From Chromatiales bacterium (lineage in GTDB: Bacteria > Pseudomonadota > Gammaproteobacteria > JAHELT01): a DNA stretch of 64,000 nucleotides. This document shows, one piece after another, positions 34,182-40,358 of the stretch. A program made the position numbers and the translations under genes. Location: NCBI GenBank assembly GCA_024644045.1, contig JAHELT010000007.1, forward strand, positions 36 through 64,035, in the 5' to 3' direction. The notes under the pieces were generated by a model, which had not been told where the DNA came from, did not search any database, and saw only the letters and a program-made list of their open reading frames with translations. Each line of letters opens with the position of its first letter. The stretch's first letter is position 1.

Positions 34182-35486
34182 ATGCAGCGCGCTGAACAGC
34201 GGCCGCCCGGTCCGCAGGGCGATTCGGGTGGCGCACCGGGCATTGCACGAGCCGGCGCGGCGCAGCATGCGAGCGTCGCTGTCGTGCTCAAAGGCTACCC
34301 GCGGCTGTCCGAGACGTTCATTGCCCAGGAACTGCTCGGCCTCGAGCAACGCGGCCACCGCCTGCTGTTCGTCTCCCTGCGCTACCCGACCGAGGCGCGC
34401 CGGCACCCGGTGCACGACGAGATCGCCGCCCCGCTCGCCTACCTGCCCGAGTACCTGCATCGGGAACCGCTGCGCGTGCTCGGAGCCTGGTGGCGCGTCA
34501 GACGCCGCGCCGGTTACCGGGCAACGTTACGCGCATGGCTGCGCGACCTGCGGCGCGACCCCAGCCGCAATCGGGCGCGGCGTTTCGGTCAGGCGCTGGT
34601 GCTGGTCGACGAGCTGCCGTCCTCCGTGACCTGGCTGTACGCCCATTTCCTGCACACACCGGCGTCGGTGGCACGCTACGCGGCGGCGATCGGCGGTCTG
34701 CCGTGGAGCTGTTCGGCACATGCCAAAGACGTCTGGACCTCCCCGGTCTGGGACATCGCCGAGAAGCTGCGGGACTGCCGGTGGCTGGTGACCTGCACGC
34801 AAGCCAACGTACGGTACCTGCGCGGGTTGAGCAACGACCCGCGGCGCATCGAGCTGGTGTACCACGGGCTCGATTTCCGGCGTTTCCCCGACCCCGGCGC
34901 GCGCCGCGGGACGCGCGACGGCAGCGACCCCGAAAACCCGGCGATCCTGCTGACGGTAGGCCGGGCGGTGGCCAAGAAGGGACTCGATGATCTGCTGCAC
35001 GCGCTGGCGGAACTGCCCGCTGACTGCCACTGGCGCTGGCACCACGTCGGGCACGGCGAACAGCTGAGCGCGCTGCAGCACCTCGCCGGCCGGCTCGGCC
35101 TGAGCGACCGGCTGCACTGGCACGGGGCCCTCACACAGACCCGGGTCCTGTCGCTGTACCGCGAAGCGGACCTGTTCGTGCTGCCGAGCAGGATCGCGCC
35201 CGACGGCGACCGGGACGGGCTGCCGAACGTGCTGCTGGAAGCGCAGAGCCAGCGCCTGGCGTGCATTGCCACCGATATCTCCGGGATCCCGGAGCTGATC
35301 GAGAGCGGAGCCACGGGCATTCTTGTCGCGCCACAGGACAGGGATGCGCTGCGGGCGGCGGTGCTGCAGTTGATCACGGATGCGGCGCTGCGCGGGCGTC
35401 TGGCCTGGCAGGGCTTCGAGCGAGTGCGCCAGCGCTTTCCGCACAACCGCGGGATCGATCTGCTGGCACAACGGCTGCCGCGGTGA
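34182..35486 (+). CDS. Glycosyltransferase family 4 (GT-B, RfaG-like)
   Basis: Glycos_transf_1 C-terminal domain (FVLPSRIAPDGDRDGLPNVLLEAQSQRLACIATDISGIPELI). The true start may be downstream of 34182. Confidence 0.75.
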   Translation: MQRAEQRPPGPQGDSGGAPGIARAGAAQHASVAVVLKGYPRLSETFIAQELLGLEQRGHRLLFVSLRYPTEARRHPVHDEIAAPLAYLPEYLHREPLRVLGAWWRVRRRAGYRATLRAWLRDLRRDPSRNRARRFGQALVLVDELPSSVTWLYAHFLHTPASVARYAAAIGGLPWSCSAHAKDVWTSPVWDIAEKLRDCRWLVTCTQANVRYLRGLSNDPRRIELVYHGLDFRRFPDPGARRGTRDGSDPENPAILLTVGRAVAKKGLDDLLHALAELPADCHWRWHHVGHGEQLSALQHLAGRLGLSDRLHWHGALTQTRVLSLYREADLFVLPSRIAPDGDRDGLPNVLLEAQSQRLACIATDISGIPELIESGATGILVAPQDRDALRAAVLQLITDAALRGRLAWQGFERVRQRFPHNRGIDLLAQRLPR

Positions 35487-36583
35487 GCGAGGTCGCCTTC
35501 TACGCGCCCATGAAGGCGCCCAACCATCCGCGGCCCTCGGGCGACCGCCAGCTCGCGCGCCTGTTCGCGCGCGCGCTGCGGACGGCCGGTTATTCCGTCA
35601 CCCCTGCTGCACAGCTGCGCAGCTGGGACGGCGGCGGCGATCAGCAGCGGCAGACCGCGATCGCCGCCCGCGGCGAGCGCATCGCCGAGGCCCTGGTGCG
35701 GCGCTGGCGGCGGCAGCCCCCCGCCGCGTGGTTCACCTACCATCTCTACCACAAGGCGCCGGACTGGATCGGGCCTCGCGTGTGCCGCGAGCTGGCCATC
35801 CCCTACATCGCAGCCGAGGTGTCGATCGCCGACAAGCAGCGTGACGGCGAGTGGCGTATGGGTTACGCGGCATCGCTGGAGGCCGTAAGCGCCGCCGCCG
35901 CGTTGATCTGCCTCAATCCGGGCGACCGTGAGGCGCTGCTGCGTTACCGCCCGGCCAGCGTGCTGCACCTCATGGCGCCGTTCTGCGACGCCCCCTCACC
36001 GAACGAGCCCGACTCGCGGCGCGCCGGCCGGACCCCGCGTCTGATCGTGGTCGCCATGATGCGGGCCGGTGACAAGCTGGAGTCGTATCGTCAGCTGGCC
36101 GGTGCACTGCAGCGCATTCGCGAGCTCGATTGGGAGTTGACCGTGGTCGGCGATGGCAGCCAGCGCGCCGGTGTCGGGCAGCTGCTGGTCCCGTGCGCGG
36201 AGCGCGTGCGCTATCTGGGGTGCGTGGACTCCGCTGAAATGCAGCGGGCGCTGGCCGGCAGTGACCTCTGTATCTGGCCCGCCCACAATGAGGCGCTGGG
36301 CATGGCGCTGCTGGAAGCGCAGATGTGCGGGGTGCCGGTGGTTGCCGGTCGCTCACCGGGCGTCGCGGCGATTGTCGAGCACGGACACACGGGTTTGCTC
36401 ACCGAACCGGGCGATGTCGGCGCCTTCGCGGCGGCGGTGCGTGAGCTTCTCGACGATCCGGCACGCCGCAGAGCAATGGGACATGCGGCGGAGCACCGCA
36501 GTCGCGCGCTGCACGGCATCGATGCGGCGGCGCACAGGCTGCGCGAGATATTGCATCAGTGTCAACGTCGCAAGGCCGGATGA
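35483..36583 (+). CDS. Glycosyltransferase family 4
   Basis: GTG start overlapping the upstream stop (GTGA). N-terminus VAFYAPMKAPNHPRPSGDRQLARLF. C-terminal EX7E-type region (LGMALLEAQMCGVPVVA). Confidence 0.8.
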   Translation: MSEVAFYAPMKAPNHPRPSGDRQLARLFARALRTAGYSVTPAAQLRSWDGGGDQQRQTAIAARGERIAEALVRRWRRQPPAAWFTYHLYHKAPDWIGPRVCRELAIPYIAAEVSIADKQRDGEWRMGYAASLEAVSAAAALICLNPGDREALLRYRPASVLHLMAPFCDAPSPNEPDSRRAGRTPRLIVVAMMRAGDKLESYRQLAGALQRIRELDWELTVVGDGSQRAGVGQLLVPCAERVRYLGCVDSAEMQRALAGSDLCIWPAHNEALGMALLEAQMCGVPVVAGRSPGVAAIVEHGHTGLLTEPGDVGAFAAAVRELLDDPARRRAMGHAAEHRSRALHGIDAAAHRLREILHQCQRRKAG

Positions 36584-37167
36584 TGCGCGTCGTTTTGATA
36601 CGCCACGGACTCACGCGGTGGAATGAGCACAAGCGCATCCAGGGACATACCGACACCTCGCTGAGTGATGCGGGACGCGCACAAGTGAGCCGCTGGCGTC
36701 TGCCGGCGCAGTTGCAGTCGCAGCGCTGGTACGTGAGCCCTTTACAGCGCGCCCGGCAGACGGCTGACCTGCTCGGCTGCCCGGTGGCGTGCGTGGAACC
36801 GCGGCTGATCGAGATGCACTGGGGCGCGTGGGAGGGCGCGTCGCTCCCCGAACAGCGCTCCCGGCTGGGGGACAGACTGCGCGAGGAGGAGCGCCGCGGT
36901 CTGGACTTCCGCCCCCCGGGCGGAGAAAGCCCGCGCGACGTACAGCACCGTGTCCTGCGATGGTGCGCCGAACTGAGCGGTGTTGCCGGCGACGTCGTCG
37001 CGATCACCCACAAAGGGGTCATCCGCGCAGTGTACGCCGCCGCCGTGGAATGGGACATGCGCCATCCGCCCGTGCACGAGCTGCAGTGGCAAAGCGGGCA
37101 TGTCTTCCGTGTGCATCGCGACGGACGCGTCAGCGTCAGCGCCCTGAACGTCAGCCTGCGCGGCTAA
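36580..37167 (+). CDS. Histidine phosphatase family protein (phosphoglycerate mutase-like)
   Basis: ATGA overlap with the upstream gene. MMRVVLIRHGLTRWN (RHG motif), later ITHKGVIRAV. Confidence 0.8.
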   Translation: MMRVVLIRHGLTRWNEHKRIQGHTDTSLSDAGRAQVSRWRLPAQLQSQRWYVSPLQRARQTADLLGCPVACVEPRLIEMHWGAWEGASLPEQRSRLGDRLREEERRGLDFRPPGGESPRDVQHRVLRWCAELSGVAGDVVAITHKGVIRAVYAAAVEWDMRHPPVHELQWQSGHVFRVHRDGRVSVSALNVSLRG

Positions 37168-39058: not shown

Positions 39059-39134
39059 GCCGATCGATTATCGGTTGCCGGCGCCGCCCATGCACGGCTG
39101 CCCACCGCCAGGCTCTGGGCACTGACGGGCGGTG

Positions 39135-40358
39135 TCAGGTAGCCTGGGCACCCAGCCAGCCGTAGTCGCTGACTTCACCCCCCAGCCTCCGGTCGACCAG
39201 TGAGGCGACCGCATCGAGACCGCGGAGCAGGCCGGTGAGTCCGCTAGCCGACGGCGGCGGTTGCTGCTCGAGAGCGCTCAGCGCCGCGATCATGTCCGCG
39301 GTCGAGCGGTCCGTATCGGGTTCCAGCACACGGGCCAGCCCCAACGTGTGCGCGCGCCGCGCGCGGATCAGCTGCTCGCGTCGCGGGTATGCGCGCGGAA
39401 TCAGCAACGCCGGCTTGTCGAATGACAGGATCTCGCAGAACGTGTTGTAGCCACCCATCGCCACCACCGCCGCCGCGCCTTGAATCAGGGACTCGACGTG
39501 GGCGTCGAAGGTCAACACCGCGACGTTGCTCAGCCGCTCGGCGCGGGCAATGAATTCGCGCTGCACATCGGGCTGCATGAACGGGCCCAGCACGAACAAC
39601 GCCGGTCGCTGCTGCGGCCGGTCAGCCTCGTAGGCGCGCAACACCCAGTCGAACATCATCGCACCATCGCCGCCGCCGCCGCTGGTCACCAGCAGGTAGG
39701 GTTCGGAGAACGGCAGCGGCTGAACGCGCGTCGTGTTGTGCGGAACGCTGCGTTCGAGATACCCGGTGTAGACCATTCGCTCACGCACCTGCGGCCCCAG
39801 ATCCAGCCCGGCAAGCGGGTCACCGAGTTCGGGCGGCCCGTACACCCAGATCTCGTCGTACAGGTCCTGCAGTGCGGGGATGACTTTCTTCCTGCGCCAC
39901 TCGCGCTTCAGCAGCATCGGGTCGTCGAGCACATCGCGCAGTCCGAGCACGTTCACCGTGCCGCGCTCGCGGCACTGGCGCAGTGTCTGCTCGACTTCGC
40001 CCTCGAGCCCCAGGGGCTCTTTGTCGACCAGAAACAGGTCGGGGGAAAACGCCTCGGCGGTATGGCGGATGATCGCCGCACGCATCGCCAGCGTTTCGTT
40101 GATATCGATGTGCAGCCCGAGCGAGGTGTACTCACCGTTGTGCAGCTTGATCACTCCCGGAACCCGCACGAAGTCGACGCGCGCCCGGAAGTCGAAACTG
40201 CCGATAATGGGCGACCCCGACAGGATCAGCACCGACAGGCCCTTGAACCGGTCAACCAGCGCGTGGGCAATCGTCCGGCAGCGACGCAGATGGCCCAGAC
40301 CGAAGGTATCGTGGCTGTAGATCAGAATCCGCGCGTTATGCAAACGATCGGTGAACAC
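39135..40358 (-). CDS. GT-B glycosyltransferase, MurG/GT28-like
   Basis: GTG start preceded by GGAGG RBS (6-nt spacer), giving MFTDRLHNARILIYSHDTFGLGHLRRCRTIAHAL, ~408 aa. The upstream extension of the track ORF is unlikely. Confidence 0.65.
   Translation of the reverse strand: MFTDRLHNARILIYSHDTFGLGHLRRCRTIAHALVDRFKGLSVLILSGSPIIGSFDFRARVDFVRVPGVIKLHNGEYTSLGLHIDINETLAMRAAIIRHTAEAFSPDLFLVDKEPLGLEGEVEQTLRQCRERGTVNVLGLRDVLDDPMLLKREWRRKKVIPALQDLYDEIWVYGPPELGDPLAGLDLGPQVRERMVYTGYLERSVPHNTTRVQPLPFSEPYLLVTSGGGGDGAMMFDWVLRAYEADRPQQRPALFVLGPFMQPDVQREFIARAERLSNVAVLTFDAHVESLIQGAAAVVAMGGYNTFCEILSFDKPALLIPRAYPRREQLIRARRAHTLGLARVLEPDTDRSTADMIAALSALEQQPPPSASGLTGLLRGLDAVASLVDRRLGGEVSDYGWLGAQAT

Follow-up and report, generated by a model that had tools for sequence, protein, structure and literature searches.

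A conserved proteobacterial glycan-synthesis gene cluster inside an unusual regulatory and transport envelope

Six enzymes in two convergent gene blocks

We analysed 64,000 nucleotides of a Chromatiales bacterium (assembly GCA_024644045.1, contig JAHELT010000007.1, positions 36 to 64,035 of the forward strand; this whole stretch is called the window), in which six tightly packed genes, here G1 to G6, occupy positions 34182-40358. All six open reading frames were verified at these coordinates and are arranged as two convergent triplets, G1-G3 on the plus strand facing G6-G5-G4 on the minus strand, as an earlier note made from the letters of the sequence had described. Their third-position GC is 0.80-0.85 in a window of 65% GC, so that they look like real genes, and the arrangement is far beyond chance, since dozens of distant genomes carry the same set. 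Reading of the junctions showed that the G1 stop and the G2 start share GTGA (35483-35486) and that the G2 stop and the G3 start share ATGA (36580-36583), which bears out the translational coupling that the note had proposed for the first three genes. The G3 stop codon TAA (37165-37167) overlaps that of G4 (CTA on the plus strand, 37164-37166), the two blocks meeting without a spacer, and G5 and G6 are separated by 76 bp. For G4 the start is most likely the GTG at 37925 (253 amino acids) in place of 37931 (255 amino acids), giving a third 4-bp overlap, GTGA, with the G5 stop (37922-37924). An identical 253-residue gene call with the same 4-bp overlaps was found on an independent Logan contig, and the nearest related locus (L001) shows the same overlaps. 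The G6 start is the GTG at 40358, giving a protein of 407 residues, and its orthologues have 401-407.

The plus-strand block begins with two glycosyltransferases of family GT4. G1 (34182-35486; 434 amino acids) has a WcaL/EpsE-like N-terminal domain with the motif YPRLSETF and scores 110.8 bits with Pfam Glycos_transf_1, and G2 (35483-36583; 366 amino acids, with a GTG start overlapping the G1 stop) scores 96.8 bits with Glyco_trans_1_4 and 90 bits with Glycos_transf_1, against family cut-offs of 26-27. The top NCBIfam match of G1 is EpsE at 112 bits, below the cut-off of 400, and G2 likewise stays below the cut-offs of BshA (73 against 273.7 bits) and MshA (69.6 against 462.5 bits). Among the named GT4 enzymes considered (EpsE, BshA, MshA, WcaL and sucrose-phosphate synthase) no NCBIfam equivalog cut-off was reached by G1 or G2. 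Solved relatives of the two proteins in the PDB are PimB', BshA, MshA and the sucrose-phosphate-synthase-like structure 6kih. G3 (36580-37167; 195 amino acids, its ATG overlapping the G2 stop) is a histidine phosphatase of branch 1, with 138.4 bits for Pfam His_Phos_1 (cut-off 21.7) and the RHG motif present as LIRHGLT. Its top NCBIfam match is CobC (TIGR03162; 109.2 bits, below the cut-off of 162.9), and its PDB relatives are a Thermus alpha-ribazole phosphatase, PhoE and, at 44.9 bits, glucosyl-3-phosphoglycerate phosphatase.

On the minus strand G4 (37164-37925) encodes what its structural model identifies as a cytoplasmic metal-dependent deacetylase of CE4/NodB fold. The AlphaFold2 model, with a predicted local distance difference test score (pLDDT) of 95.5, has CE4 deacetylases as its top Foldseek matches, led by 3rxz (E 2.5e-8) and followed by SpPgdA, HP0310 and ArnD, with TM-scores of 0.66-0.68. 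In the family alignment the motifs WRDDDA, QHGxxH, PPWN, H-x-D and EPTGxxTHH are invariant, the invariant residues being D30-D31-D32, H82, H86, P133-W134-N135, H174-D176 and H219-H220, and R136 is found in at least 90% of sequences. Mapped from the alignment, without superposition, these motifs are the predicted NodB Asp-His-His metal triad and the catalytic Asp/His set. The score with Pfam Polysacc_deac_1 is 15.4 bits (E 0.019), below the cut-off of 23.1, and the assignment is made on fold and motifs despite it.

The two remaining proteins, G5 (37922-39058, minus strand; 378 amino acids) and G6 (39135-40358, minus strand; 407 amino acids), score 32.3 and 32.2 bits with Pfam Glyco_tran_28_C (cut-off 22) and are paralogues with 26% identity (E 3e-22). 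The AlphaFold2 model of G6 (pLDDT 82.6) matches GT1 UDP-glycosyltransferases, CalG, OleD and MurG best in Foldseek, the GT1 small-molecule transferases and MurG about equally. G6 stays below the NCBIfam cut-offs for murG (TIGR01133; 21.7 against 250.25 bits) and for the MJ1255/VC2487 subfamily (40.7 against 195.9 bits), and the names among its listed relatives are all generic, for example 'predicted glycosyltransferase'. G5 and G6 are thus GT-B enzymes of the GT1/GT28 class, and the evidence goes no finer.

None of the six enzymes has a predicted transmembrane segment or a signal peptide, and none reaches a curated functional-family cut-off (EpsE, BshA, MshA, CobC, MurG or MJ1255). The enzyme classes named in the earlier note hold for the two GT4 proteins, the histidine phosphatase and the two GT28-like transferases, all of which pass their Pfam gathering scores; its NodB deacetylase stands by fold model and motif set and falls short of the Pfam threshold.

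Conservation of the cluster and its partners

To describe the conservation of the cluster we scanned one genome per species for relatives of G4, which gave at least 592 loci. Eighty were kept, 47 of them with full 10-kb flanks, and the presence of each gene was assigned by tblastn with the window proteins; the partner counts below refer to these 47 loci, and those for the ABC gene and the two genes that follow it are lower bounds set by flank length. All six genes were present in 36 of them. Individually G1 was found in 45, G2 and G6 in 43 each and G3 in 38, and G5 lay beside G4 in 46. The gene order is G6-G1-G2-G3-G5-G4 in Alphaproteobacteria and as in the window in Gammaproteobacteria, with equal content, and the cluster holds in members of the Alpha-, Beta- and Gammaproteobacteria alike. 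Uncultured Gammaproteobacteria are the nearest relatives, with 64-86% protein identity, and distantly related proteobacterial loci share 35-69%. G6 is the best conserved gene of the set (51-69% identity in the more distant, mostly alphaproteobacterial loci), and G1 is 52-63% identical in related loci. Databases hold more than 6,600 relatives of G4 and more than 8,000 of G6. Named hosts include Azospirillum, Thalassospira, Inquilinus, Roseomonas, Marinobacterium and Motiliproteus, with one locus on an Azospirillum oryzae plasmid, and the hosts comprise many marine bacteria as well as soil- and plant-associated ones (Azospirillum, Inquilinus, Rhizobium). The six genes make up the enzymatic centre of an old, vertically conserved proteobacterial system. 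Neither Wzx, Wzy, Wzz nor a priming phosphoglycosyl transferase was seen, whether in the window or in related loci with annotation (L001, L004, L005, L008), which upholds the earlier statement that polymerase, flippase and chain-length genes are missing. A Wzm/Wzt pair was not found in the cluster either; an ABC-2 pair (14834-16562) lies 18 kb off and was not looked for in related loci.

A reduced form is found on Rhizobium and Sinorhizobium megaplasmids, where only the G2-type GT4 and the deacetylase are retained, tying the chemistry of G2 to that of G4. The GT4 paired with the deacetylase on pSymB of S. meliloti is 41% identical to G2, and in R. leguminosarum the G2/G4-type pair lies beside a cyclase. 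In S. meliloti 1021 (pSymB 811674-836414) the pair is placed between genes for an MscS-type channel and an MBL-fold protein, followed by DUF3095, with a DegT aminotransferase and another GT4 upstream and importer orthologues about 7 kb downstream. A study of the S. meliloti Clr regulon mentioned SMb21247, a GlcNAc deacetylase encoded within the nodP2-smb21248 polysaccharide cluster (PMC5498481). The pSymB pair lies about 5 kb downstream of the DegT gene with other genes between, and its deacetylase is at most a candidate for SMb21247. In an Azospirillum brasilense locus (L023, 1726-2727) a PAS-GGDEF diguanylate cyclase gene lies between G2 and G1, a candidate for the published CdgA (WP_035674663, PMC5845226); the same gap of about 1.1 kb between G2 and G1 is seen in five further Azospirillum/Roseomonas loci (L024, L030, L043, L059 and L073).

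Synteny also places G3 within the glycosyltransferase cluster rather than with a cobalamin-type uptake and salvage group at 48305-57832 of the window, which comprises a TonB-dependent receptor, a FecCD permease, Peripla_BP_2, an ABC ATPase and cobT (DBI_PRT). We rejected G3 as the alpha-ribazole phosphatase CobC, given its sub-cut-off score, its location among glycosyltransferases in 38 loci and the 19 kb that separate it from cobT. A HAD phosphatase as a general substitute for G3 was set aside as well, the 657-residue HAD protein in question occurring alongside G3 in L012 and L033.

The cluster is flanked by a second conserved block. Divergently from G1, with a gap of about 300 bp, starts a gene (ATG 33882; 31237-33882, minus strand) for an exporter-type ABC half-transporter of 881 amino acids, a candidate translocator with the order of transmembrane domain and then nucleotide-binding domain (NBD) of a type IV, ABCB-like protein. 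It scores 71.8 bits with Pfam ABC_membrane and, in a split match, 58.8 bits with ABC_tran, and its PDB relatives are ABCB4, ABCB1, BmrA, MsbA, PCAT1 and NdvA (97.6 bits for NdvA). Its ATPase motifs have degenerated, with GPNGSGRD, LSMEQ, IVND and an H-loop glycine in the window protein in place of the canonical Walker A (GxxGxGK(S/T)), signature (LSGGQ), Walker B (hhhhDE) and H-loop histidine. Across 47 orthologues the Walker A is GSG(R/K)(D/E), the signature LSxxQ, and the Walker B aspartate is replaced by asparagine or serine. The NBD also carries about 300 extra residues (about 450-750), as well conserved as the rest of the protein, in which the motif that follows the Q-loop is repeated twice more (SVRDNMHYA, SVAENLLFG, TLLDNILFG) and two segments align weakly to one another (pairwise E 0.001); it seems from these repeats that the Q-loop/helical-subdomain region has undergone tandem duplications. 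The ABC gene lies within the flank in 31 loci, and this conserved synteny supports the link between the six genes and the dead-ATPase ABC protein that had been suggested from the window.

Downstream of the ABC gene and on the same strand lies a stand-alone cyclic-nucleotide-binding protein of 155 amino acids (30662-31129), with 71.7 bits for Pfam cNMP_binding and an intact phosphate-binding cassette (GE...RTAT). It is found in 29 loci, nearly always adjoining the ABC gene. The block ends with an S-adenosylmethionine methyltransferase-like protein of the Methyltransf_17 family (30138-30641, minus strand; PF12692, 146.9 bits), which is within the flank in 16 loci and keeps the same order in L001, L004 and others. 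On the other side, divergent from G6, is a class III nucleotide cyclase (40632-42020, plus strand; Pfam Guanylate_cyc 98.7 bits), membrane-bound with about six transmembrane segments. In L052 and L072, and at the cut end of L001, an orthologue is likewise divergent from G6, and 12 loci have one no more than 10 kb away. Where adenylyl cyclases have the substrate-specifying lysine, the window cyclase and its orthologues in Gamma- and Betaproteobacteria carry glutamine (INQFxGD), with threonine at the second specificity position, whereas the alphaproteobacterial counterparts have Lys/Thr; the glutamine makes the nucleotide product of the gamma-type cyclase uncertain. PADLOC matched the cyclic-nucleotide-binding protein and the cyclase to Pycsar/TIR-effector models at domain level (cNMP-binding and cyclase domains) and, weakly, the ABC protein to mad3 and mad8, presumably via its nucleotide-binding domain. 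An anti-phage defence system was rejected, as none of the six enzymes matches a PADLOC model and the other matches are at domain level only.

Both divergent regions contain conserved non-coding sequence. A block at 33941-33995, between the ABC gene and G1, is about 90% identical to L001, where the proteins are 64-86% identical, and may be a shared control site, judging from this conservation. A second block at about 40440-40520, between G6 and the cyclase, is also about 90% identical to L001, above the flanking proteins. Neither block had a counterpart in loci more distant than L001, Rfam gave no match of meaningful score and thus no riboswitch or small RNA in the divergent regions, and a promoter/terminator scan returned sites no more numerous than in shuffled sequence.

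The most constant partner of the cluster, in 42 loci, is a Gsi/Opp-type ABC importer, which in most alphaproteobacterial loci comes directly after G4 and in the same orientation. The window holds its orthologues 23 kb from G4, at 5474-11443 on the plus strand. They encode a fused double ATPase (5474-7357; 58-68% identity to related loci by tblastn), an SBP_bac_5 binding protein (about 7300-9261; 47-61%) and the permeases OppB (9279-10274; 64-87%) and OppC (10271-11443; 63-77%), and compared with the alphaproteobacterial locus L004 alone the identities are 58-78%. The earlier note had passed over these genes, and the conserved system is larger than six genes. For the binding protein the top PDB relative is 5ipw (282 bits), a putative and uncharacterised oligopeptide-binding protein, followed by SPH1118 (242 bits), a pectin-binding protein (PMC7055323, PMC9314435), and then by binders of alpha-galactosides and chito-oligosaccharides. 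In most alphaproteobacterial loci a protein of about 170 amino acids is encoded between G4 and the importer; it was recorded in L004 (10851-11363), L005 (10723-11265) and about 53 further loci. Two translations read as two N-terminal hydrophobic helices with a conserved C-terminal domain. Pfam gives no match for this protein, and the window yielded no counterpart.

Several other genes of the window were recorded. Two MFS transporters (25008-27930), a gamma-glutamyltranspeptidase (GGT; 27994-29943, minus strand) and a second His_Phos_1 protein of 151 amino acids (29638-30093, plus strand) flank the ABC block; GGT, the short phosphatase and one MFS gene have the same position in L001, and a link of these genes to the cluster is possible. 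A DUF1611/DgcN-like protein (4282-5349, plus strand) is encoded immediately upstream of the importer, and an enolase-superfamily protein resembling L-Ala-D/L-Glu epimerase and DgcA (42983-44098, plus strand) beyond the cyclase, both below their equivalog cut-offs. These two genes suggest that functions in D-glutamate or murein-peptide metabolism may be encoded in the vicinity. Between the importer and the glycosyltransferase cluster, at 13967-16562 on the minus strand, the ABC-2 type exporter pair mentioned above (membrane protein and ATPase) adjoins a class I methyltransferase.

A proposed exported glycoside and its rivals

We propose that the four soluble GT-B transferases, two of retaining GT4 type and two of the GT1/GT28 class, would make a short glycoside or oligosaccharide, some four sugars long at most, within the cytoplasm, and that assembly would not take place on the usual undecaprenyl-diphosphate primer. 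One transfer may be onto a phosphorylated acceptor, with G3 then dephosphorylating the product, a step that we model on the sucrose-phosphate, glucosyl-3-phosphoglycerate and GlcNAc-inositol-phosphate pathways. One of the added sugars would be an N-acetylhexosamine, de-N-acetylated by G4 to a free amine following the logic of NodB, MshB and BshB. The product could then cross the inner membrane via the ABC protein, whose degenerate nucleotide sites would suit a regulated rather than an ordinary ATP-driven transport, with control supplied by the co-encoded cyclic-nucleotide receptor and the neighbouring cyclase. Finally the importer, whose binding protein has oligosaccharide binders as its nearest characterised relatives, may retrieve the product or a fragment of it. 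We hold this reading as a whole, a partly de-N-acetylated short glycoside that is made in the cytoplasm, exported by the ABC protein under cyclic-nucleotide control and re-imported, tentatively, at a probability of about 0.4, and the product itself is one that we infer.

A number of points weigh against it. No product, substrate or phenotype is on record for any member; all NCBIfam functional models score far below cut-off, and donor and acceptor specificity is not readable from the sequences. Six loci with the other five genes lack G3, as does the rhizobial pair, so that a step on a phosphorylated acceptor is not universal. In Thalassospira and some further loci no ABC protein was seen within 10 kb, and the degenerate motifs of this protein could mean that it transports nothing. 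What the importer takes in could be an acceptor or some unrelated nutrient, and the authors of the SPH1118 work noted that peptides may also be bound (PMC7055323). Lipids are frequent substrates of GT1/GT28-class enzymes, a point in favour of a glycolipid product.

Such a membrane glycolipid, in which G6 or G5 would glycosylate an inner-leaflet lipid (diacylglycerol, ceramide or a phospholipid headgroup), the other transferases would extend it, G4 would expose an amine and the ABC protein would flip the product, is the main rival, in our judgement unlikely but deserving to be taken seriously. In its favour, the modelled GT-B fold of G6 has MurG, whose acceptor is a lipid, among its matches, G1 and G2 have a phosphatidylinositol-mannoside mannosyltransferase as their nearest solved relative, the relatives of the ABC protein include the lipid translocators ABCB4 and MsbA, and undecaprenyl-diphosphate machinery was not seen. 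The matches to lipid enzymes, however, lie mainly in the generic donor-binding domain, the annotated loci conserve neither an acyltransferase nor a lipid-synthesis gene with the set, and a glycolipid leaves unexplained an importer that is present in 42 loci and has a periplasmic binding protein with relatives that bind soluble oligosaccharides. The same importer speaks for import and modification or salvage, where an N-acetylated oligosaccharide or glycopeptide would be brought in, deacetylated by G4 and remodelled by the transferases, the six genes working for uptake and not for synthesis de novo: it is the most constant partner, and in the majority of alphaproteobacterial loci its genes come right after G4 with the same direction of reading. 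Four biosynthetic-type GT-B enzymes would nevertheless be unexpected in a catabolic route, the annotated loci conserve no glycoside hydrolase, kinase or deaminase with the set, and the window importer is 23 kb away from G4; we regard this explanation as the least probable of those considered.

Uptake systems are also commonly encoded beside the genes for solute synthesis, and an intracellular compatible solute, which like the glycolipid had been raised as a possibility in the earlier note and stays a guess, would make use of one to recover leakage: a GT4 would join a nucleotide sugar to a phosphorylated acceptor, G3 would free the glycoside, and the compound would build up during osmotic stress. 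The pairing of GT4 and phosphatase follows the logic of sucrose phosphate and glucosylglycerate, with G3 related to glucosyl-3-phosphoglycerate phosphatase and G1 and G2 matching 6kih; many hosts are marine, and a gene for an MscS-type channel adjoins the S. meliloti pair. Four transferases and a deacetylase exceed, however, the needs of any known pathway of this kind, and the system is carried by soil- and plant-associated hosts too. The partners, namely the exporter-type ABC protein, the cyclic-nucleotide-binding protein, the methyltransferase, the cyclase and the importer, argue against a purely intracellular solute, and the exporter, receptor and cyclase among them point to regulated release rather than storage. 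We judge a compatible solute very unlikely, and consider still more doubtful an ordinary surface polysaccharide (exopolysaccharide, capsule or lipopolysaccharide core) with its priming, polymerisation and export genes elsewhere in the genome. G1 is alike over its full length to exopolysaccharide transferases of the WcaL/EpsE type (112 bits), the window has an ABC-2 exporter pair at 14834-16562, and the diguanylate cyclase between G2 and G1 in Azospirillum recalls that cyclic di-GMP commonly controls exopolysaccharide. Against this, the primer transferase, Wzx/Wzy, Wzz, the OPX protein and Wzm/Wzt are absent from the window cluster and from six gene-annotated loci, conservation over the 80 scanned loci picks out other partners, and the high conservation of G6 (51-69%) is unlike the usual rapid turnover of surface-polysaccharide loci.

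The exported, partly de-N-acetylated glycoside that we prefer has likenesses to several characterised systems. In mycothiol and bacillithiol synthesis (MshA, the MshA2 phosphatase and MshB; BshA and BshB) a GT4, a phosphatase and a metal-dependent de-N-acetylase act together in the cytoplasm as they would here, and the GT4, which G2 weakly matches (BshA 73, MshA 69.6 bits), puts GlcNAc on a small, in part phosphorylated acceptor. The present cluster differs by having no cysteine ligase and by its three further transferases, exporter and importer, and G4 has the CE4/NodB fold whereas the MshB/BshB family has the LmbE fold. Sucrose-6-phosphate synthase and phosphatase, and GpgS with GpgP, likewise pair a retaining transferase with a dedicated phosphatase, GpgP belonging to the same histidine-phosphatase superfamily as G3, but these are two-enzyme pathways lacking a deacetylase, GT1/GT28 enzymes or an exporter, and here the phosphatase is dispensable in some loci. 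With the Nod-factor core (NodC, NodB, NodA, NodIJ) the likeness is a cytoplasmic NodB-fold de-N-acetylase acting on a new oligosaccharide and ABC export of a soluble signal. Neither a GT2 chitin-oligomer synthase nor an acyltransferase, however, occurs in the cluster or the annotated related loci, leaving the NodABC combination incomplete, and the exporter is a type IV ABCB-like half-transporter rather than an ABC-2 pair such as NodIJ.

An ABCB-type half-transporter is found in the NdvA/ChvA export of cyclic beta-1,2-glucan, a glucan made in the cytoplasm independently of a lipid carrier; there the synthase enzymes are unrelated, and the ABC protein described here has a degenerate Walker A, Walker B and signature and about 300 extra NBD residues. 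Features that G5 and G6 have in common with MurG, the GT28 monogalactosyldiacylglycerol (MGDG) synthases and GT1 enzymes are the GT-B fold, the glycine-rich loop and a C-terminal donor motif (GGYNT/AGYNT), while G6 scores far below the equivalog and subfamily cut-offs of MurG and MJ1255. Exporters of NHLP-type bacteriocins (TIGR03796/TIGR03896) are also ABCB-type proteins encoded with a cyclic-nucleotide-binding protein, and these models give the top NCBIfam match of the ABC protein (TIGR03796, 184.5 bits, cut-off 853.3) and a match of the cyclic-nucleotide-binding protein (TIGR03896, 46 bits, cut-off 161), but a peptidase domain, an HlyD partner and a precursor peptide gene are lacking here. 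Membership tests thus assigned the proteins to no specific functional family. A full-text literature search found no paper on this gene set, nor any relevant to COG4671, to Methyltransf_17 or to the cyclic-nucleotide/ABC/Azospirillum context, and no characterised counterpart appeared in papers or annotations, in line with the initial description of the cluster as uncharacterised. The cyst mutants RC1_2536/RC1_2537 of R. centenum, in adjacent glycosyltransferase genes, were considered and dismissed, since they lie in a classical exoP-gumK-rfbP exopolysaccharide cluster, a different system.

Significance of the module

What is new here is a glycan-synthesis cluster inside an unusual conserved envelope of regulatory and transport genes. 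A bolder version of our proposal would be a cyclic-nucleotide-gated 'secrete and recapture' circuit for a small oligosaccharide, partly de-N-acetylated, whose synthesis needs neither a NodC-type synthase nor a lipid carrier, in which an ABC protein devoid of ordinary ATPase motifs answers to a dedicated cyclic-nucleotide receptor and the Opp-type importer takes the product up again. We advance it as speculation that is rather improbable as it stands. If it were true, the circuit would make the glycan an extracellular signal or shared good of a class not recognised in bacteria until now, one common among Alpha- and Gammaproteobacteria, both free-living and plant-associated. The module is present in at least several hundred species, including cultivable Azospirillum, Thalassospira, Inquilinus and Marinobacterium. 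Identification of the compound would assign a function to a dozen widespread families of 'predicted glycosyltransferase' and hypothetical proteins together, would explain an ABC family whose nucleotide sites are degenerate throughout, and would give cAMP/cGMP signalling in these bacteria a defined output.

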